Shown here: positions 3,523-45,268 of the stretch, one piece after another
Layout: every line of letters begins with the position of its first letter
Position numbering within the stretch: the first letter of the stretch is position 1
Assembly (NCBI GenBank): GCA_965227875.1
Contig: OZ245783.1
Location: 983,750-1,047,749 of the forward strand
DNA: 64,000 nucleotides
Reading direction: 5' to 3'
Origin: Hyphomicrobiales bacterium
GTDB lineage: Bacteria > Pseudomonadota > Alphaproteobacteria > Rhizobiales > JAJFHC01
The notes under the pieces: generated by a model
What the model saw: only the letters and a program-made list of their open reading frames with translations
Told to the model about the DNA's origin: nothing
Databases searched by the model: none
Position numbers and translations under genes: made by a program

Positions 3523-3540
3523 TTGCCGGGTGCCCGGCAA
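3523..3540. promoter_or_regulatory. perfect palindrome TTGCCGGG-TG-CCCGGCAA, candidate enhancer (FlbD/ftr-like) site for the fliK promoter
   Basis: 8-bp inverted repeat read directly from the sequence. It is centred roughly 90-100 bp upstream of the sigma-54 -24/-12 element at 3623-3638. An AT-rich patch (gattataaag) lies between them. Confidence 0.35.
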
Positions 3541-3622
3541 GCCTGTCCCGGCCAGCTTGACCCGCTTATCCGGCTTACGGGTCAACCTCCTGATTATAAA
3601 GCACGTTTCCGCGGCCCGTTTA

Positions 3623-3685: not shown

Positions 3686-5398
3686 TTGAGCAACATTCTC
3701 GCCCTCGCCCTTCGCGCCGACGCCACACCGGACCGTCCGCACGAGCCGGCCCCGCGCCAGCGGCCCGAGCGCGGATTCGACTCCCATCTCGAGGGGTACG
3801 GCCGCGACCGTGCCGACGACCGTCGGGCGGACGGGCGCAGGCCGGATGGAGACAGGGCCGAACCCCGGCGCGACCGCCCGTCGCCCCCCGATCACGCCCC
3901 GGCCCATGGCCGCCGCCGCGAGACCCGCGACGAGGCCCCGCCGGCCGCGACGCGCGAAGGGTCCGCGGACGAAGCGGCCACGGTCGCCGGCGGCGACACC
4001 GAAGCCACGCAGGACACCGGCGTCGAGAATAGCCAAACCGCATCGGACGCGGCCCAGGCCAATGAATCGGATGGAACCGCACCCGATGATGCGGACCTGG
4101 CCACGTCGGCCGGCGACGAAGGCAACCCGGCCCCCGCCGCAACGGTCGCATCCGTCGCCACCGCCGATGCATTGGGCGAGCCCGGCCTGACCGGGGACGC
4201 CGCCGCGCCCGCACCGGTCGTGACCTCGCAAACGCAGGACACGGGCGCCGCGGATACCGCCGGCGACACGGCCACCGGAGTCACGGATCAGACGGAAGCC
4301 TCATCGCGGCAAGCCACCACGGCGGAGACAATCGCCGGCACGGAAAGCACCCACGCACTCACGGAAACCGGAAACGCCGGCGACGCCTCCGACACTGCGG
4401 GAGACGCGGAGGCCACCGCCGACACCACCGGAGATGCGGCTGAGACGGCCGAAGGCGACAGCGTCGCGGAGGTCACGCCCGATCCCGCGCTCGCCGCGGC
4501 GGGGCCGGCCACGGCTGTGGCGTCCTCCCTGCCCGGCTCGGCCGTCCAGACCGGTTCCGAACGTCCCGGTGCCCGCGGTCTTCTGTCCGCACGCGGTCCC
4601 GCGACCCCGTTCGGACCGCAGGCAGCCGACCCGTCCGCCCTGTCCGGCGCCAGACCGGGCCTTGAAACCGGCGAGGCTGCCACCCGCACCGCCAACGCGG
4701 ACCAGCCCGCCAGGTCGGAGAATTTCGAACGCCTGCTTCCAGGCCAGCGCGCAGATGATGCGACAGCGAAGCCACGTCCGGCGGACGGCGCACAAAACCC
4801 CGCCACGACCACCACGGCCGCGCCTCCGCCTCCGGTCACCGCCGCGGGGGCGACCGGCGAGGGCCTGCTGCTGCAGCCGCTCGACGGAACCGAACAGGCC
4901 ACCGCACGCGGCGCCGTCCAGGACAGCGCGCCCACCATACGTCTCGTCTCGGCCGCACGGGGCGCGGGGGCGACCGTCACCGCGACACCGGTCAACACGC
5001 TCGCCTTCCACATCGCCCGGCACGCCGGCGAGGGTGTCAACCGGTTCCAGATCAGGATCGACCCGCCGGAAATGGGCCGCATCGACGTCTCCATGGAGGT
5101 CGACCGCGACGGTGGCGTCAAGGTCCACCTCACGGTGGAACGGTCGGAGGCGCTCGACTTCCTGCAGCGTGACGCCCGGGCGCTCGAACGGGCGCTCAAC
5201 GACGCCGGCCTCGATGCGGACGACGGCGCCCTCTCCTTCTCTCTCTCCGACGGTGACGGCGACGTGCCCGAGGATGCCGACGGCAGCAATTCGCGCGGAC
5301 CGGGCGCGGGCGAAACCGCGGCCGACGCCGGCGAGACCGGCGAATCCGAAACCATCGCCGGCCTCGCCGTTGCCGGCGGCCTCGACATCAAGGTCTAG
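3686..5398 (+). CDS. fliK: flagellar hook-length control protein FliK
   Basis: The C-terminal segment RIDPPEMGRIDVSMEVDRDGGVKVHLTVERSEALDFLQRDARALERALNDAGL matches the FliK/Flg_hook domain. A long Ala/Thr/Asp/Pro low-complexity region precedes it, and flgD follows directly. The track ORF begins at GTG 3530, but the sigma-54 promoter lies inside that extension. I therefore prefer TTG 3686, which has GGAG 10 nt upstream. The start remains uncertain. Confidence 0.8.
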   Translation: MSNILALALRADATPDRPHEPAPRQRPERGFDSHLEGYGRDRADDRRADGRRPDGDRAEPRRDRPSPPDHAPAHGRRRETRDEAPPAATREGSADEAATVAGGDTEATQDTGVENSQTASDAAQANESDGTAPDDADLATSAGDEGNPAPAATVASVATADALGEPGLTGDAAAPAPVVTSQTQDTGAADTAGDTATGVTDQTEASSRQATTAETIAGTESTHALTETGNAGDASDTAGDAEATADTTGDAAETAEGDSVAEVTPDPALAAAGPATAVASSLPGSAVQTGSERPGARGLLSARGPATPFGPQAADPSALSGARPGLETGEAATRTANADQPARSENFERLLPGQRADDATAKPRPADGAQNPATTTTAAPPPPVTAAGATGEGLLLQPLDGTEQATARGAVQDSAPTIRLVSAARGAGATVTATPVNTLAFHIARHAGEGVNRFQIRIDPPEMGRIDVSMEVDRDGGVKVHLTVERSEALDFLQRDARALERALNDAGLDADDGALSFSLSDGDGDVPEDADGSNSRGPGAGETAADAGETGESETIAGLAVAGGLDIKV

Positions 5399-6248: not shown

Positions 6249-6524
6249 ATGTCCGAACAGTACAGGCCCCGCGTCAATTATGTTATCGGGCCGGATGGCA
6301 GTCCCCTGACGATTGCCGACCTTCCGCCAGCCAATACCAAGCGGTGGGTCATTCGCAGGAAAGCCGAAGTCGTCGCCGCTGTACGCGGCGGTCTGCTCAG
6401 CATCGAGGAGGCCTGCCAGCGCTACACGCTCACAGTCGAGGAGTTCCTCAGCTGGCAGCGTTCGATCGACCGCCACGGCCTCGCCGGCCTGCGCGCCACG
6501 CGAATCCAGCACTACCGCCACTGA
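6249..6524 (+). CDS. sciP: DUF1153-type HTH protein, SciP-like CtrA inhibitor
   Basis: ~91 aa: MSEQYRPRVNYVIGPDGSPLTIADLPPANTKRWVIRRKAEVVAAVRGGLLSIEEACQRYTLTVEEFLSWQRSIDRHGLAGLRATR. It matches my memory of Caulobacter SciP and sits in the same position, between the hook operon and fliF. The track starts at TTG 6234; ATG 6249 is preferred. Confidence 0.8.
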   Translation: MSEQYRPRVNYVIGPDGSPLTIADLPPANTKRWVIRRKAEVVAAVRGGLLSIEEACQRYTLTVEEFLSWQRSIDRHGLAGLRATRIQHYRH

Positions 6525-6587: not shown

Positions 6588-6617
6588 GAGGCCGGCCACC
6601 TGAGCCGGCCTTTTTTG
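6588..6617 (+). terminator. Rho-independent terminator after sciP
   Basis: GAGGCCGGCcacctgaGCCGGCC followed by TTTTTTGTT. Confidence 0.75.
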
Positions 6618-6719
6618 TTGTGCGGCCACGCCGTCAACCGCCCCTCCGCACCCCGACCACCCGCTTCACCTCACCCACCCGACACCTCTTCACGCTTCTC
6701 CGCTCCCGGGACAGTTGCC

Positions 6720-7176
6720 GAATTTCCGGCAAACGGCGGCATCCAGGCTCGACGGACGGTCTGGGTCCTGACTTTCGTCAGGAATACGGCGGCGGTGGCG
6801 TCGCCGCCCCCGAACCCAACGCGCTCCTCGAATTGCCGGCGAAAGCCGGCATCTAGGCCGGCGGACTGGATCCTGACTTTCGCCAGGAATGCGGCGGCGG
6901 TGGCGGCGCCGTCGCCCCCGAACCCAACACGCTTCCCGAATTGCCGGCGAAAGCCGGCATCCACACCGGCCAGCGGTCTGGGTCCTGACGTTCGTCAGGA
7001 ATGCGGCGATGGCGCCGTCGCCTCCCGACCCCAAGCGTTGCCCGAATTGCCGGCGAAGGCCGGCATCCATACCAGCCGGCTGTCTGGATCCTGACTTTCG
7101 TCAGGAATGCGGGGGTGGTGGCGGCGGCCGCGACCCGGAGCGCCCCCCGAATTGCCGGCGGAAGCCGGCATCCAGC
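6720..7176. repeat. tandem array of a ~105-110-bp unit (4 full units plus a fifth head), two hairpins per unit
   Basis: The unit head GAATTGCCGGCGAAAGCCGGCATCC recurs at 6830, 6938, 7044 and 7149, with a degenerate copy at 6720. The periods are 110, 108, 106 and 105. Each unit has hairpin 1, TGCCGGC-GAAA-GCCGGCA, and hairpin 2, TCCTGAC-TTTC-GTCAGGA. Track ORFs here (6344..7381, both strands) are just translations of the repeat. Confidence 0.9.
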
Positions 7177-7449
7177 CGGGTGCTCCGGGCGAACGGTTAA
7201 CGCGGCCCGGCAGGAATTGCCCGGCGGCGGGGCGGCCCGGGCGGGAAAACTGCACTGTGCGGTGACTTTCCGGACACCAACGTCGCCCCCGTTAAGAACT
7301 TGTTTAGGCAAACATAGGAAATTTTTTCCTACCGGCCCGCCACGGCGACGATTCGTCCGCCAGGGATTAGCGGCCGGTTAAAGGCAGGGGCGAAATCTTC
7401 CGGTCGAAGTCCGACAGACGCACTAGCGGGAAGTTGAAGGGTTGAAGTC

Positions 7450-9123
7450 TTGAATGGCGCGATAGAGTTCATCAAAACGATCGGAAGCGCACGCCTCGCC
7501 GCCATGGCCGCGGTGACGGTCGCGCTCATCGCGTTTTTCATCTTCATCATCATGCGCATGTCCCAGCCGCAGATGACGACGCTCTTCACGGACATGCCGC
7601 TGGAGGACTCCAGCGAGGTCGTCGGCAAGCTCGAAAGCCTCAACGTACCCTTCGAACTGCGCAATGACGGCGCGACCATCCTGGTCCCCAAGGAACAGGT
7701 GCTGCGCCTGCGCATGTCGCTGGCCGAGGAAGGCCTGCCGGCCGGCGGCTCCGTCGGCTACGAGATTTTCGACAAGGGCGACGCGCTCGGCGCCACAAGC
7801 TTCGTCCAGAACATCAACCATCTTCGCGCGCTCGAGGGCGAGCTCGCCCGCACGATCCGTGCGCTCGACCGGGTCAAGATGGCCCGCGTCCACCTCGTGA
7901 TCCCCAAGCGCCAGCTCTTCGCCCAGGACCGATCCGAACCCACGGCGTCGATCGTGCTGCGGATCCGCGGTGACCTCGGACGCGGCCAGATCCGCGCCAT
8001 CCAGCACCTCGTCGCCTCTGCGGTCAAGGACCTCAAGCCGGCGAACGTGTCCATCGTCGACGAGCACGGGACCCTGCTGGCGAGCGGTCTCGGCGCTGGC
8101 GACCAGTCGGCGGCGATCGGCGCGCTGGAGGAACGCAACCAGACCTTCGAACGCCGGATGCAGAGCCAGATCGAACAGATCGTCACCAGCGTCGTCGGGC
8201 CCAAGAACGCCCGGGTCCAGGTCAATGCCGAGATCGACTACAACCGGGTGACCCAGACCGAGGAAACCTTCGATCCCGACGGCCAGGTCGTGCGCTCGAC
8301 CCAGACCCGCGAGGAAACCGCCAACGCACGTGACGGCGGCGCGGGCGGCGGCGTCACCGTTGGCAACGAACTCCCCGGCGCCGGCGCCAACAATGGCGGT
8401 GGCCGCGCCACCTCCGAGGCGTCCAACAAGACCGAGGAGATCGTCAACTACGAGATCTCCAAGACCACCAAGCAGGAGGTCATGGAAGCCGGCCGGGTGA
8501 AGCGCCTGTCCGTCGCGGTTCTCGTCGACGGCACCTACGAGAAGGACGCGGCAGGCACCGTCGCCTACGTGCCGCGGCCCAAGGAACAGCTCGACCAGAT
8601 CGCCACGCTCGTCCGCTCCGCCATCGGCTTCGACCAGGCCCGCGGCGACGTCGTCGAGGTCGTCAATCTGCAGTTCGCCCCGCTCGCCGCTCCCGAGGAC
8701 CTCGCCGATGCGGAGGCGTCGCTCTTCGACTTCACCCAGGAAGACTATTTCTACATGGCCGAATTGGCCGTGCTGCTGATCATCTCCATCCTCGTCCTGC
8801 TCCTGGTCGTGCGTCCGCTCGTGCGCCGCATCGTCACGCCGGAGGACAACAACGCCCTCGACGTGGCCCAGATCGCGACCAGCGTGACAGAGGGCAACGA
8901 ATCCGGCGAACCGATGACAGAGGAAGAGCGCGCGGCCAAGGACAGGGCCGATGCGGCCGCCCTCCCCAAACCGGAGAGTGAAGCCTCCACCCTTATCGAA
9001 TACGCACAGATGGTCGGTGAAGCCCAGGGCCACACCATCCGCAAGGTCGCGGACCTGGTGAGACAGAATCCTGACGAGGCGGTCTCGATCATCCGTCAGT
9101 GGATCAATGACGAGGCGGCATGA
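7450..9123 (+). CDS. fliF: flagellar M-ring protein FliF
   Basis: 557 aa. An N-terminal TM segment is followed by [53 protein letters not shown] (the YscJ/FliF motif) and a second TM near the C-terminus. TTG start. Its stop overlaps the fliG ATG. Confidence 0.93.
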
Positions 9124-19519: not shown

Positions 19520-19541
19520 CGGTCGTCCCGATCCGATAGAC

Positions 19542-19572
19542 AAAAAACCCCGGCCCAGGCCGGGGTTTTTTA
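19542..19572. terminator. bidirectional Rho-independent terminator between ctrA and cheR
   Basis: AAAAAA-CCCCGGCC-ca-GGCCGGGG-TTTTTTATT. The stem is flanked by an A-run and a T-run. Confidence 0.8.
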
Positions 19573-22208: not shown

Positions 22209-22694
22209 TCAGGCGGCACGACTTTCCGTCTCGGAGTAGAAGATGCTCTCCGGATCGAGGATCATCATCAGCCGGTCTTCCAGCTGCACCACACCGACGC
22301 AAACCTGCTTCCACGTCTGGTCGAGATGGGACGGGACGGTTTCCACCTTGGACCCTTCCGGCAGGATCACGTCGCCGACGGCGTCGACCATCAGCGCGTA
22401 GGTGCCTGCCTCCCGGCGAAGGCCGATCGCCATCGGCTTCTCGACCGCCTTGTGGGGTATGCCGAGCCTTGCGCAGATATCGATCAGGGTCACCAGCCGA
22501 CCGCGCAGGTTGAGCACGCCGACGACCTCACGCGGCGCCATCGGAACCTGCGTGACCATTTCCGGTTCGAAAACATCCTCGACGTCGCCGATCGGCAGTC
22601 CGAAGAGCTGGTCCTGAATGGACACCGTCACGTATTCGCCGTCATAGGCCGTGAGGTCCACAGACGTGGTGTTGGAGGTGTTGTCCGCGCTCAT
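22209..22694 (-). CDS. cheW: chemotaxis coupling protein CheW
   Basis: 161 aa with YVTVSIQDQLFGLPIGDVEDVF...VVGVLNLRGRLVTLIDI. 4-nt overlap with the cheA stop. Confidence 0.92.
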   Translation of the reverse strand: MSADNTSNTTSVDLTAYDGEYVTVSIQDQLFGLPIGDVEDVFEPEMVTQVPMAPREVVGVLNLRGRLVTLIDICARLGIPHKAVEKPMAIGLRREAGTYALMVDAVGDVILPEGSKVETVPSHLDQTWKQVCVGVVQLEDRLMMILDPESIFYSETESRAA

Positions 22695-25522
22695 GCCGCC
22701 ATCCCCATGTAACCGACGTGATTTTCAAGCACGTCCAGAAGTTTCATCCGGTCGAATTTCGCCACGTGGTCGCAGAAGCCGGCCCGGATGGAACGCTCCA
22801 CGACGTCCTGGCCGGAATGGCCCGAAAGTGCGATGCACTTGGACTCGGGCCAGAGCTTGCCTTCCTGGATCGCCGCGATGAAGGCGAAGCCGTCCATGTC
22901 CGGCATCTCGAGGTCACTGGCGACGAAATCGAACGTCTGGCCCCGGCGCGCGAGTTCGATCGCCTCCTTGCCGGACCCGACCGCGGTGACGTGGAAGCCG
23001 TGCGCTGACAGGAACGGCGTCAGCATGTTCCGGAAGAACGCACTGTCGTCGACGAGAAGCACCGTCGTCTCCACCTCGAAGATGCTGCTGTCCTCGGCCG
23101 GCTGAAGCGTCTCTGGCATGTAGTGCGCGAGGTCGAGAATCTCGGTCACCTTGCCCGAGATCACGGCGGAGCCAATAACACCGGTGCTCGACGAATGCGG
23201 ATCGATATGCAGCGGTTCCTCCACCACGTCGACGATTTCGTCCACGACGAGACCGGTATGACGGCCGCCATGTTCTATGACGATCACGGGACGGGCGCCT
23301 TCCGCACCCGGGACATCCAGGTGGATCAGCGGCATGAGCGAGTCGCGGTACTGCACCACGTCACGGTCGGCCGAGTGCTCGACCACGGACATGTCGAGTT
23401 CCTCGAGACGGTTGATGAGCGCCAGAGGCAATGCCTTGGGATCGTCGGAGCCTGCCCTGAACAGCAGCATGGCGACCGAATCCTCGCTCGATTCGAACTG
23501 CTCAGACGCACCGGTCATCGCCGCGTCCAGCCCCACGGTCGCGCGCATGTCGCCCAGTTCGGCGACACCGGTCGGATCGATGATCATCACGACGCTGCCG
23601 TCACCGAGAATCGTGTTTCCGGAGAAGGCCTTGACGTTCTTCAGGAGGCCCGACAGCGGTTTCACGACGATTTCCTCTGTGTCGTAGACCGCATCGGCGA
23701 CCATGCCGAACTCGAACCCGCCGATACGCAACACCGCCACGAATTCATTGGCTTCGAGCGTCTCCTCGGACTCTTCTTCACCCTCGCCGGCGGGTTTCGC
23801 CGGAGCGTCGGACGCGGTTCCGAACATTTCCGCCAGCCGGACGAGCGGCAGCAGACGGCCCCGCAGCCGCAGGATGGGAGAGCCGTTGACCATCTCAACC
23901 TTGTGTTCGTCGCCGGAACGGACCCGCACGAGTTCGATGATGTTGAGCTGGGGCAATGCGAATTTCTGTCCGCCCGCGCCGATGATGAGCGCCGGAACGA
24001 TGGCCAGGGTGAGCGGAATCTGGATCGTGAATTTCGAACCCTCGCCGGGCACGGAAATCACGTCGACGGCCCCGCCGATCACCTCGATGTTGGACCGCAC
24101 CACATCCATCCCGACGCCTCGGCCGGAAACGTTCGTGACCTTGTCCGCGGTCGAAAGGCCGGCTTCGAAGATCAGGCGATGCACCTGTGCATCGTTCATG
24201 GCCTCCACATCGGCCGCCGTCGCGAACCCGTTTTCGATCGCTTTCTGGCGGATCCGCTCGGCGTCGAGCCCCTTGCCGTCGTCGGAGATCTCGATGACGA
24301 TGTGGCCGCCTTCGTGGCGCGCGGATAGAAGCACCCTGCCCGTCGCCGGCTTGCCGGCGGCAAGACGCTCGTCGGTCGTCTCGAGGCCGTGGTCGGCGGC
24401 ATTCCGGACCATGTGGGTGAGCGGATCCTGGATCATTTCCAGCACCTGCCGGTCCAGTTCCGTATCCTCGCCGATCATCTCCAGCTCGATCTGCTTGTCC
24501 AGATCGTTGGCCAGCGTACGAATGATCCGGGGCAGCTTCTGCCATGCATTGCCGATCGGCTGCATGCGCGTCTGCATGACCCTTTCCTGAAGTTCCGCCG
24601 TTACGCTCGACAGGCGCTGCAGGGGTGCCTGCAGGGCGCCGTCCTGCACGTGGCGGCCGATCTCCAGAAGCTGGTTGCGGGCGAGCACAAGCTCGCTCAC
24701 GGTGGTCATCAGCTTCTCGAGGGTGTCGACATTGACCCTGATGGATTTCGACCGCACGTCGCGCTGCTGCTGCGGCTGGTCGCCGCCCCGGGCGGCTTCC
24801 GCCGCCGGTTTCGGATCGGCTGCCTTCGCCTCGGTTTCCCTGGGGACAGGCCGGTCATTGGCCGGCGCTTCAGCGGTCTGCGCGCCGTCGTCCGAACTCT
24901 CGTCCGCCTGGGCCTTGCTGGCGGCAATCGCATCGCGCAACGCCTCGTTGGCGTCGGGAATGAACACGTCCGACTCCGCTGCCGCGAAAATCGCATCGAG
25001 TTCATCGAGGCTCGGTTCCTCGATCAGGGCGGGCGCGCCGTCGCCACCGCCGGTTTCGGGCTCCACGGCCGCTTGTGGCTCGGGCTCGGGTTCCGGTTCG
25101 GGCTCAGGCTCTGGTTCCGGCTCGGCAACGCTTTGCCCTGTCGCCGATTCACCGGCGGAAAGCCGTGCGAGCTGGCTGATCAGATCCTCGTCGGATCCTT
25201 CCGGCTCGTGCTGATTGACCTCGAGATCGGCAAGGATCTGCTTGATCCGGTCGATCGAGGCCAGGATGACCGTCACGGCTTCCTTCGTGACGGGCGCCCC
25301 TTCCCGGAACCGGCCCATCAGGTTCTCCGCCGCGTGGGCAACCGACTCCAGCCGCGTCAGACCGAGAAAACCGCAGGTCCCCTTGATCGTGTGTACAAGC
25401 CTGAAGATATTGTCCAGAATCTCGTCATTGTTCGGATCCTGCTCGAATTTCACGAGCTGGACATCGACGACATCGAGACTTTCCTCGGTCTCCGCAAGAA
25501 AATCACCGAGAAGATCGTCCAT
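22691..25522 (-). CDS. cheA: hybrid chemotaxis histidine kinase CheA with C-terminal receiver domain
   Basis: Hpt/P1 LFRLVHTIKGTCGFLG, an (EP)8 linker, the dimerisation and HATPase regions (HMVRNAADHG...SGRGVGMDVV), a CheW-like P5, then a receiver VLLVDDSAFFRN...FVASDLEMPDMDG...IALSG...HVAKF with all conserved receiver residues. Start trimmed to MDDLLGDF (25522). Confidence 0.93.
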   Translation of the reverse strand: MDDLLGDFLAETEESLDVVDVQLVKFEQDPNNDEILDNIFRLVHTIKGTCGFLGLTRLESVAHAAENLMGRFREGAPVTKEAVTVILASIDRIKQILADLEVNQHEPEGSDEDLISQLARLSAGESATGQSVAEPEPEPEPEPEPEPEPQAAVEPETGGGDGAPALIEEPSLDELDAIFAAAESDVFIPDANEALRDAIAASKAQADESSDDGAQTAEAPANDRPVPRETEAKAADPKPAAEAARGGDQPQQQRDVRSKSIRVNVDTLEKLMTTVSELVLARNQLLEIGRHVQDGALQAPLQRLSSVTAELQERVMQTRMQPIGNAWQKLPRIIRTLANDLDKQIELEMIGEDTELDRQVLEMIQDPLTHMVRNAADHGLETTDERLAAGKPATGRVLLSARHEGGHIVIEISDDGKGLDAERIRQKAIENGFATAADVEAMNDAQVHRLIFEAGLSTADKVTNVSGRGVGMDVVRSNIEVIGGAVDVISVPGEGSKFTIQIPLTLAIVPALIIGAGGQKFALPQLNIIELVRVRSGDEHKVEMVNGSPILRLRGRLLPLVRLAEMFGTASDAPAKPAGEGEEESEETLEANEFVAVLRIGGFEFGMVADAVYDTEEIVVKPLSGLLKNVKAFSGNTILGDGSVVMIIDPTGVAELGDMRATVGLDAAMTGASEQFESSEDSVAMLLFRAGSDDPKALPLALINRLEELDMSVVEHSADRDVVQYRDSLMPLIHLDVPGAEGARPVIVIEHGGRHTGLVVDEIVDVVEEPLHIDPHSSSTGVIGSAVISGKVTEILDLAHYMPETLQPAEDSSIFEVETTVLLVDDSAFFRNMLTPFLSAHGFHVTAVGSGKEAIELARRGQTFDFVASDLEMPDMDGFAFIAAIQEGKLWPESKCIALSGHSGQDVVERSIRAGFCDHVAKFDRMKLLDVLENHVGYMGMAA

Positions 25523-25681
25523 GCTTTCGCCCCTCCTAACCACTTTTGAGCAGTCATCCTGCATCGAGTGGAGAGAATTGCCCGGAAAGAGTTAAAATTC
25601 CTTTTCGGGCCGGAGCGATTCCGGGACGTCAACGATTAAGGATTGTCGAAAAACTGCACTGGAGGGCGGTAAACGGCAGGA

Positions 25682-45024: not shown

Positions 45025-45240
45025 GTCTTTCCTTTCGATCGCCGGGGAGCGATCAGTCTTGGTGCCTGACGCTGATCTAGTGATCAATAATGACAAAAAC
45101 GCGGCATGAGACGGCCGGTTCCGAGATCTACGAAAATTTGATCCTCTGTTGCCGCAGTGCAACACCACGGCCTGTCCGGGCACGGTCGCGCGCACCGAAC
45201 CTGCAGTTGCCCGATCAAAGGCAAGCCATTGTGCCAAAAA

Positions 45241-45268
45241 CAAAAAACCCCGCCGCGAGGCGGGGTTT
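45241..45268 (-). terminator. Rho-independent terminator after the second porin gene
   Basis: The minus strand reads CCCCGCC-tcgc-GGCGGGG followed by TTTTTTG. Confidence 0.75.

Follow-up and report, generated by a model that had tools for sequence, protein, structure and literature searches.

A tandem array of hairpin-forming units lies between sciP and fliF in the window analyzed here, a 64,000-nucleotide (nt) stretch of a Hyphomicrobiales genome (contig OZ245783.1). The array, at positions 6718-7174, is most likely a tandemly amplified cluster of heterodimers of the repetitive extragenic palindromic (REP) type, inserted in this lineage and without a dedicated role in flagellar regulation. 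The evidence consists of the anatomy of the array, its homology to dispersed dimers in other genomes, its absence from relatives and the differential conservation of its parts. The initial annotation of the window had offered two readings, an element resembling dispersed REPs or bacterial interspersed mosaic elements (BIMEs), and a locus-specific array. The first is favored by the anatomy, by the dispersed homologous dimers elsewhere and by the literature, whereas the second is opposed by the absence of the array from four relatives, by its position outside the conserved block upstream of fliF and by the decay of one of its modules.

Structure of the array

Tandem Repeats Finder reported one array at 6718-7174, with a period of 105/106, 4.3 copies, 78-79% matches and a score of ~500, by far the strongest tandem repeat of the window. 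The units, which had been described in the initial annotation as a tandem array of ~106-bp double-hairpin units, are 105-110 bp long, and the repetition is beyond chance. The 25-nt head of hairpin 1 (H1), GAATTGCCGGCGAAAGCCGGCATCC, occurs with at most one mismatch at 6830, 6938, 7044 and 7149, and hairpin 2 (H2), TCCTGAC-TTTC-GTCAGGA, occurs at 6766, 6871, 6983 and 7089; none of either is expected in shuffled sequence. The mismatch search thus recovered the four full heads of the annotation, whose degenerate fifth head at 6720 is readable in the sequence and scores 14 bits with a model of the module, and the four copies of H2 agree with its claim of one in each full unit. A pattern search detected no H1 head and no H2 outside the array in the 64 kb.

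The two hairpins are related. An inverted-repeat search showed the H2 region to be ~75% complementary to the H1 region. H1 follows the plan CCG-A-AT-TGCCGGC-GAAA-GCCGGCA-TCCA, and the reverse complement of H2 follows the plan CCG-C-AT-TCCTGAC-GAAA-GTCAGGA-TCCA. Read on the minus strand, H2 aligns with H1 position by position; the flanks and loop are shared, and the three positions at which the stems differ are all compensated. By this alignment, H2 is an inverted paralogue of H1 and not an unrelated hairpin, so that each unit is an inverted heterodimer of two REP-type modules plus a linker. The relation was overlooked in the initial annotation and is the key to classifying the element. The natural boundaries, a dimer of 67-72 nt followed by a GC-rich linker of 34-41 nt, refine the unit first proposed.

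Each module is 28 nt long and consists of an unpaired 5' tag (CCGA, CCGC or CCGT in the window), AT, a 7-bp GC-rich stem around a 4-nt loop of GAAA type, and an unpaired CCA tail after the return stem. The left arm is ATT plus 6 nt and the right arm 6 nt plus AT; because the right arm ends in AT and not AAT, there are seven contiguous pairs followed by a bulged T and one A-T pair. The loops of the intact H1 copies read GAAA, GAAA, GAAG and GGAA in order on the plus strand, and those of H2 read GAAA, GAAA, GAAC and GAAA on the minus strand, as expected from the annotation, which had given GAAA for three of the four. The CCA tail is present in seven of the eight intact modules, and the cytosine at position 26 (C26) is invariant in the module alignment. 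Within a dimer the tags face outward and the CCA tails inward, with 11-16 nt between the modules.

The array is composed of four H1/H2 dimers in tandem and one terminal solo H1 module, with the H1-type modules on the plus strand and the H2-type modules on the minus strand. The first unit begins with a decayed H1 at 6718-6745 (two uncompensated stem changes, loop AAAC; 14.3 bits with module model R1), followed by H2 at 6762-6789 (CCGTAT-TCCTGAC-GAAA-GTCAGGA-CCCA; 42.5 bits) and by linker 1 at 6790-6827 (GCGGCGGTGGCG...CCCCCGAACCCAACGCGCTC), whose structure is not above that of shuffles. In the second unit, H1 at 6828-6855 (TCGAAT-TGCCGGC-GAAA-GCCGGCA-TCTA; 38.7 bits) is joined to an H2 at 6867-6894 (42.0 bits) whose variant stem pairs by a G-T wobble when read on the strand of the module and has an A-C mismatch on the opposite strand; linker 2 occupies 6895-6935. 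The third unit holds H1 at 6936-6963 (CCGAAT-TGCCGGC-GAAA-GCCGGCA-TCCA; 44.9 bits), the H2 with the GAAC loop at 6979-7006 (39.3 bits) and linker 3 at 7007-7041, and the fourth holds the H1 with the GAAG loop at 7042-7069 (42.7 bits), H2 at 7085-7112 (43.6 bits) and linker 4 at 7113-7146; like the first, linkers 2 to 4 are GC-rich. The solo H1 at 7147-7174 (loop GGAA; 42.6 bits) is the last element of the array and is also found in strains L097 and L098, with the loop GCAG in L098. Overall, scores range over 39-45 bits for the eight intact modules, compared with 14 bits for the decayed head and, as noise, at most 14 bits for the remainder of the window. The solo module is embedded in a longer palindrome at 7134-7189, CCCGGAGC...GCTCCGGG, with 26-nt arms that are 73% complementary; the outer arms are not kept in strain L098, whose FliF is 97% identical. 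The DNA to the left of the first head was considered as a remnant of a linker and rejected, since its alignment scores are the same as those of shuffles.

Conservation is unevenly distributed within the units. The modules are 88-93% identical between units and the central spacers and linkers 56-62%; 6-10 of 56 columns vary in the modules compared with 32-37 of 57 elsewhere (Fisher p about 3e-7). As single-stranded DNA (ssDNA), either strand of a dimer is predicted to fold into a row of three hairpins, namely H1, H2 and a small stem between them, which the CCG/CGG ends close (z = -2.8 to -4.0 relative to shuffles), while the linkers have z near 0. The much better conservation of the modules than of the linkers shows the hairpins to be maintained. 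Their maintenance could be due to selection on single-stranded structure, or to homogenization, whether by a cognate enzyme or through copies elsewhere in the genome.

Homologous dimers and known REP classes

A degenerate pattern for both module types was scanned over one genome per species of GTDB and matched at least 96 genomic stretches; the source locus is not among the matches listed. Most of the listed matches belong to one clear family, and some are chance matches inside genes. In at least 49 cases an inverted partner module, which lies outside the constraint of the pattern, is found 27-35 nt away. Among the matches listed, the partners have a perfect 7-bp stem, mostly a GNRA-type loop, a (T/C)CCA tail and an nCGCAT tag; metagenome-assembled genomes (MAGs) of Stellaceae contain dozens of homodimers with the stem TCCCGGC, and Caulobacter and Sphingopyxis have stem types of their own. 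The Stellaceae copies (MAGs DATCQF01, DASYUS01 and DASUKH01; L001-L096) are commonly CCGCAT-TCCCGGC-GAAA-GCCGGGA-(T/C)CCA homodimers with tails ~30 nt apart, and many short Stellaceae contigs start or stop at a copy, suggesting that the repeat fragments these assemblies.

Among the matches listed, close counterparts of the array dimers are heterodimers in Hyphomonas, Henriciella and an unclassified bin (L037), where they occupy several loci per genome and carry a TCCTGAC stem identical to that of H2 in the window. The partners of this stem are TGCCAAC or TGCCAGC, one or two compensated pairs away from the H1 stem; that of L037, CCGAAT-TGCCAGC-GGAA-GCTGGCA-CCCA, differs from it by one compensated pair. 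Full-length dimers of these genomes align with those of the window, the sole large difference being a central spacer ~18 nt shorter in the window. The consensus fold of the aligned dimers recovers both module hairpins, with compensatory changes in the H1-type stem. In an alignment of 24 distinct modules, five of the seven stem pairs vary on both sides and the covariation score is 0.58 compared with 0.25 in shuffles; the 100% stem pairing of this set is partly by construction because partner modules were selected for perfect stems. The genes adjoining module copies have unrelated housekeeping functions (ribosomal proteins L19, L20 and S16, transaldolase, aconitase, SufE, RbfA and GreA). The distribution in those genomes is thus scattered and extragenic, as is typical of REPs. 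Two loci show other kinds of module-bearing arrays in other Alphaproteobacteria, L044 at ~3750-4250 (OZ244951.1) and L093 at 1-519, which have larger tandem units of ~153 nt and of 226 nt x2.3, respectively, with one module each. A protein-space search with the open reading frame (ORF) reading through the array gave no match, and a BLAST search of one unit against plasmids gave weak chance matches only, the best of them inside the coding sequence of Neisseria mtrF.

These homologies bear on the simplest alternative, that the array is a plain minisatellite formed by local slippage duplication of a hairpin-bearing sequence unrelated to any mobile or dispersed family. Such an origin would suit a single locus in 64 kb, an exact H1 head that has no copies in the metagenomes scanned and the failure to find a transposase in the window and the other loci. 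It is nevertheless highly improbable, as the modules and the dimer architecture are homologous to dispersed alphaproteobacterial elements in tag, loop class, tail and stem type, and uniform drift would not yield 90% identity in modules and 60% in linkers.

In two respects the element conforms to the general definition of a REP. The 28-nt module is a short imperfect palindrome with an oriented, unpaired, conserved end, and modules occur in inverted pairs with a short spacer, four in the window and at least 49 elsewhere. By analogy, the heterodimer would be the equivalent of a REPIN (a REP doublet) or of the y/z pair of a BIME. The GTAG (GYRG) tag of GTAG-tagged REPs is absent from the window modules, and the nearest described relatives are instead the CGTC-tagged REPs. 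Di Nocera and coworkers showed that the latter are predominantly alphaproteobacterial and located between genes of the same direction, and that their stem of 8-9 bp, which starts with A-T and T-A, encloses a loop of 4-5 nt and is followed by an unpaired tail, CCA (Di Nocera et al. 2013, PMC3733652). They mostly form dimers with outward tags (head-to-head), frequently heterodimers, and in clusters the dimers are reiterated together with flanking DNA, although tandem clusters are rare in the class; no dedicated transposase is known (PMC3733652). Family CGTC-1 includes the Neisseria member dRS3/NTS, ATTCCC-N8-GGGAAT, CGTCATTCCCGCGMAVGCGGGAATCYRG (PMC3733652). The window module shares with this class a 4-nt unpaired tag, the left arm ATT, the 4-nt loop and the CCA tail, and all four window dimers have outward tags and different stems and are clustered with flanking DNA. 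The start of the stem agrees with the CGTC class only by half, since seven contiguous pairs are followed by a bulged T and a single A-T pair in place of a clean 8 bp. The CGTC tag itself occurs in only two of the 49 listed partner modules from other genomes (L047 and L002).

The arrangement of the modules is closest to two other systems. BIME-2 of Escherichia coli, described by Bachellier and Gilson, contains two REP types in tandem copies, which vary in number and are separated by inner and outer linkers (Ton-Hoang et al. 2012, PMC3333891). The window array likewise has two REP types alternating in orientation, a short inner and a longer outer linker, and linkers more variable than the REPs, and its copy number is expected to differ between strains. 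The REPs of E. coli differ in having a GTAG tag and an internal stem mismatch and in being mobilized or cleaved by TnpA-REP, a REP-associated tyrosine transposase (RAYT). In Pseudomonas fluorescens SBW25, REPIN clusters consist of tandem inverted REP doublets including flanking sequence, and the largest described cluster has four REPINs and one extra REP (Bertels & Rainey 2011, PMC3116915), a count equal to the four doublets and one extra module found here. SBW25 REPINs are homodimers that fold as one long hairpin and are tied to RAYT genes, whereas the window dimer is predicted to fold as three separate hairpins because its two arms have different stems.

A nuclease has recently been connected to the dRS3 type of hairpin. 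Chenal and coworkers showed that SsnA, a 94-amino-acid GIY-YIG nuclease, binds and cuts dRS3/NTS-type hairpins as ssDNA only, that binding depends most on the cytosine directly after the palindrome and cleavage on the three upstream bases, and that taxa rich in Ssn-related motifs (SRMs) are mostly Alphaproteobacteria (Chenal et al. 2025, PMC11893778). Like an SRM, the window hairpin has oriented flanks, and its post-palindrome cytosine is invariant in the module alignment; unlike an SRM, it has CGC or CGA as the triplet upstream of the palindrome and not GTC. The H1 modules fit the published SRM pattern once the HGTC tag is dropped. The defining tags of the CGTC and SRM families were tested for and are lacking, and for this reason the array is not filed as a strict member of either. 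The element is best described as a variant-tag relative of the CGTC/SRM families within the general REP/REPIN/BIME kind.

The array documents such a variant-tag relative of the CGTC/dRS3 class recurring across Alphaproteobacteria, in the form of a clean heterodimer with compensated stems. Since hairpin-specific ssDNA nucleases (Ssn) have recently been tied to the CGTC/dRS3 class, the family offers defined substrates for tests of enzyme specificity. Among the matches listed, the nCGC/CCGA-tagged hairpin (ATT-stem-GAAA-stem-AT-CCA) reaches high numbers in Stellaceae and also occurs in Hyphomonadaceae, Caulobacter, Sphingomonadaceae and some Gammaproteobacteria. It is a speculative idea, and not a probable one, that this hairpin defines an undescribed widespread branch of dRS3/NTS-like REPs served by a divergent Ssn-type ssDNA nuclease, or by an unknown protein, with a different specificity for the upstream triplet. 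If so, tandem heterodimer arrays would be hot spots of multi-site ssDNA cleavage or recombination next to class II flagellar genes, and the enzyme would keep the modules homogeneous, which would explain their ~90% identity compared with ~60% in the linkers.

Several observations weigh against the interpretation of the array as a REP cluster. Within the 64-kb window the modules are confined to the array, as judged by a generic hairpin scan, a repeat-family search and an unfiltered covariance-model search. With a single module locus and, by a crude estimate, roughly 10-20 other intergenic regions in the window, the family is not dense in this part of the genome, and the source genome may contain very few copies of the exact subfamily of the array. 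Arrays of at least three units of the module were not seen in ~100 other loci, which makes tandem amplification an unusual event in this family. A scan of JGI metagenomes specific for H1 returned only two isolated palindromes, which are chance matches because they have other loops, no tail and no partner. The window tags (CCGA/CCGC/CCGT) are not the CGTC, TGTC or CCTC of CGTC-tagged REPs, and the SRM pattern (HGTCWYN(0-2)YYVSBRHN(0-5)WNVSBRGN(0-2)RNCYNB) has no match in the window. A search of ~0.76 Mb, comprising the window and the other-genome loci, recovered no RAYT gene and no GIY-YIG gene, including none resembling cd10448; it used tblastn, regular expressions, phmmer on 8,332 ORF segments and a bulk Pfam scan of 150 module-adjacent ORFs, with a TnpA-REP (RAYT) probe validated as PDB 4ER8 and small GIY-YIG probes validated on Pfam PF01541. 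This absence is a weak negative, covering the window and ~0.7 Mb of loci from other genomes. Finally, the conservation of modules over linkers could also reflect a local function.

The fliF upstream region in relatives and related strains

The position of the array agrees with the initial annotation, which had placed it about 100 nt after the sciP terminator and about 270 nt before fliF. It starts ~100 nt past the terminator, whose stem lies at 6588-6612, and 275 nt separate its end from the start of fliF at 7450. A conserved block upstream of fliF (7194-7340, plus strand), recognized by alignment with relatives and near-identical strains, begins 20 nt beyond the end of the array. The array fills the non-conserved stretch between the terminator and this block.

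The locus was compared with that of four relatives whose FliF proteins are 73%, 73%, 65% and 65% identical to that of the window. The gene order fliK, flgD, DUF1153, fliF, fliG and onward through an flbD-like gene and flhA is common to all four, and their DUF1153-fliF spacers measure 492, 431, 456 and 516 nt compared with 925 nt in the window. In their 85 kb there is neither a module nor any trace of an array, as shown by a hairpin scan, BLAST and an unfiltered covariance-model search, yet all four retain the conserved fliF promoter block; a comparison with relatives had been proposed in the initial annotation. Within the block, CCGTTAAGAACTTGTTTAGGCAAACATAGGAAATTTTTTCCTAC (7288-7335) is nearly invariant in the four relatives (FliF 65-73%) and in two strains. 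This near-invariant stretch of ~45 nt contains TTAA-N7-TTTA at 7292-7306, a sequence similar to a CtrA box, and probably represents the core of the fliF promoter. The block also contains GGTTAAC at 7195-7201. Just downstream of the array, at 7206-7224, is the palindrome CCCGGCAGGAATTGCCCGG (GGCA-N5-TGCC), and each of the four relatives has one or two GGCAAT-N3-TTGCC palindromes at the equivalent position. It is a candidate site for an FlbD-like enhancer-binding protein.

Near-identical strains are represented by three samples (Logan DRR378781, Logan SRR14511799 and ENA ERZ23499065). The edges of the array are present in all three, and every contig stops inside it: those from the left break off in the first dimer and those from the right in the last head. 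The array therefore occurs throughout the species-level group and breaks short-read assemblies. It could serve as a marker for strain typing if its copy number varies. The first H1 module is intact in L105 (TGCCGGC-AAAC-GCCGGCA), has one stem mismatch in L106 and has two uncompensated changes in the window. Across these three sequences this is ordinary decay, without sign of selection on that copy.

The initial annotation had proposed that the array might affect fliF or sciP, and in one form this would make it a locus-specific cis-regulatory array whose palindromes bind a flagellar regulator (FlbD, CtrA, integration host factor or similar) and tune either gene. The array does end just 20 nt ahead of the conserved block, its modules are much better conserved than the remainder of the unit, and the H1 arms share TTGCCGG/CCGGCA with the palindromes at 7206-7224 and 3523-3540. 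The likeness of the arms to the latter, TTGCCGGG/CCCGGCAA upstream of fliK, had been pointed out in the annotation and proved superficial, as it is limited to the GC-rich arm, the half-sites are reversed, and the tag, loop and tail are missing. The same reversal applies at fliF, where the H1 order TTGCC...GGCA is opposite to the conserved GGCA...TGCC. A cis-regulatory role is very unlikely because the array is missing from four syntenic relatives in which the promoter block and its GGCAAT-N3-TTGCC palindromes are retained, because the same modules adjoin unrelated housekeeping genes in other taxa and because the first module is decaying in the window strain.

The predicted folding raises the possibility that the array is transcribed as a structured RNA, either as a 3' extension of sciP read-through acting as an exonuclease barrier or attenuator, as a far-upstream leader of fliF or as an independent small RNA. 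As RNA, the whole array is predicted to fold far better than shuffles on the two strands (z = -7.5 and -5.8), its loops are mostly of GNRA type, and the one stem variant forms a G-U wobble on the module's own strand only. Many REPs between same-direction genes have also been argued to be transcribed (PMC3733652). A transcribed RNA is nonetheless unlikely. A strong intrinsic terminator lies ~100 nt ahead of the array, no promoter-like site was found, the array is missing from the relatives, and the inversion of one module type relative to the other would leave half of the modules in the wrong sense on every transcript. A weak similarity to the Caulobacter small RNA CC3552 (Rfam RF01529) covers 6716-6811 on the minus strand with 23.2 bits (E = 0.14-0.68) and falls well short of the gathering threshold of 50. 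On that strand one array unit has a CUGGCGAAAGCCAG hairpin beside a GC-rich stretch, as does the RF01529 consensus, and the resemblance probably reflects a related REP overlapping that RNA. Rfam family RF01529 may itself rest on REP-derived sequence.

Several classes of known element were considered and rejected. Membership in Rfam families (CC3552, radC, CRISPR-DR and others) was dismissed as all scores are far under threshold. The array is not a CRISPR array, since its linkers recur as well and its two types of repeat alternate with each other in opposite orientations; the only CRISPR-DR match, at 17 bits, is noise. Integron attC sites are excluded by the lack of ORF cassettes and of an integrase, and an array of terminators by the lack of U-tracts after the hairpins.

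For the REP cluster itself, we infer that a recent ancestor of the species acquired a single dimer in the non-conserved part of the sciP-fliF spacer. Tandem duplication of the dimer with ~40 nt of neighboring GC-rich DNA, through unequal recombination or through a putative enzyme of the element, would then have given four dimers and one extra module. Afterwards the modules may have been held nearly identical by selection on the hairpins or by homogenization while the spacers and linkers drifted. Placed between the sciP terminator and the conserved fliF control region, the array would most likely be a passenger, neutral at this locus and dispensable for fliF regulation. It might still have effects that are generic to REP or BIME clusters, as a barrier to read-through transcripts, a site of supercoiling or recombination, or a target of insertion sequences (IS). 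As a caution for annotation, a structured array upstream of the fliF control region is in this case most probably a REP cluster and not a flagellar regulatory element or a small-RNA gene.

Neighboring genes and other repeats

The genes flanking the array are both on the plus strand. The sciP-like gene at 6249-6524 encodes a DUF1153 protein (Pfam PF06627, E = 6e-43), in support of the identity given to this neighbor in the initial annotation, and its orthologues in the relatives are annotated as DUF1153. Its intrinsic terminator, a 9-bp GC stem with a T-run, occupies 6588-6622 on the same strand. fliF, at 7450-9123, encodes the MS-ring protein, and its homologues carry the Pfam domain YscJ_FliF. 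On the evidence of FliF, the source, with a contig of 5.3 Mb, belongs with Hyphomicrobiales-like Alphaproteobacteria.

Upstream of the conserved mnmA-fliK-flgD-sciP-fliF block, mobile cargo differs among L099 (1-4741), L100 (1049-4281) and L103 (1-4343). The kinds of cargo are a phage integrase with a repressor, an IS3-type transposase, and a serine recombinase with a phage capsid gene, and they mark a variable boundary of the flagellar cluster.

Other repeats are found elsewhere in the window. At the start of the fliK-like ORF, the perfect palindrome TTGCCGGG-TG-CCCGGCAA (3523-3540) is overlapped by a 14-nt tandem repeat, CCCGGCAAGCCTGA x2.3, at 3533-3564. A GGCTCG hexamer is repeated eight times at 25077-25125, where periods of 18 and 24 nt can also be read; it lies inside a long minus-strand ORF (22691-25564) and probably codes for a low-complexity protein segment. 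Two near-identical terminator-like hairpins, ACAAAAAACCCCGSC...GSCGGGGTTT, are located 25.7 kb apart at 19540-19568 and 45240-45268.

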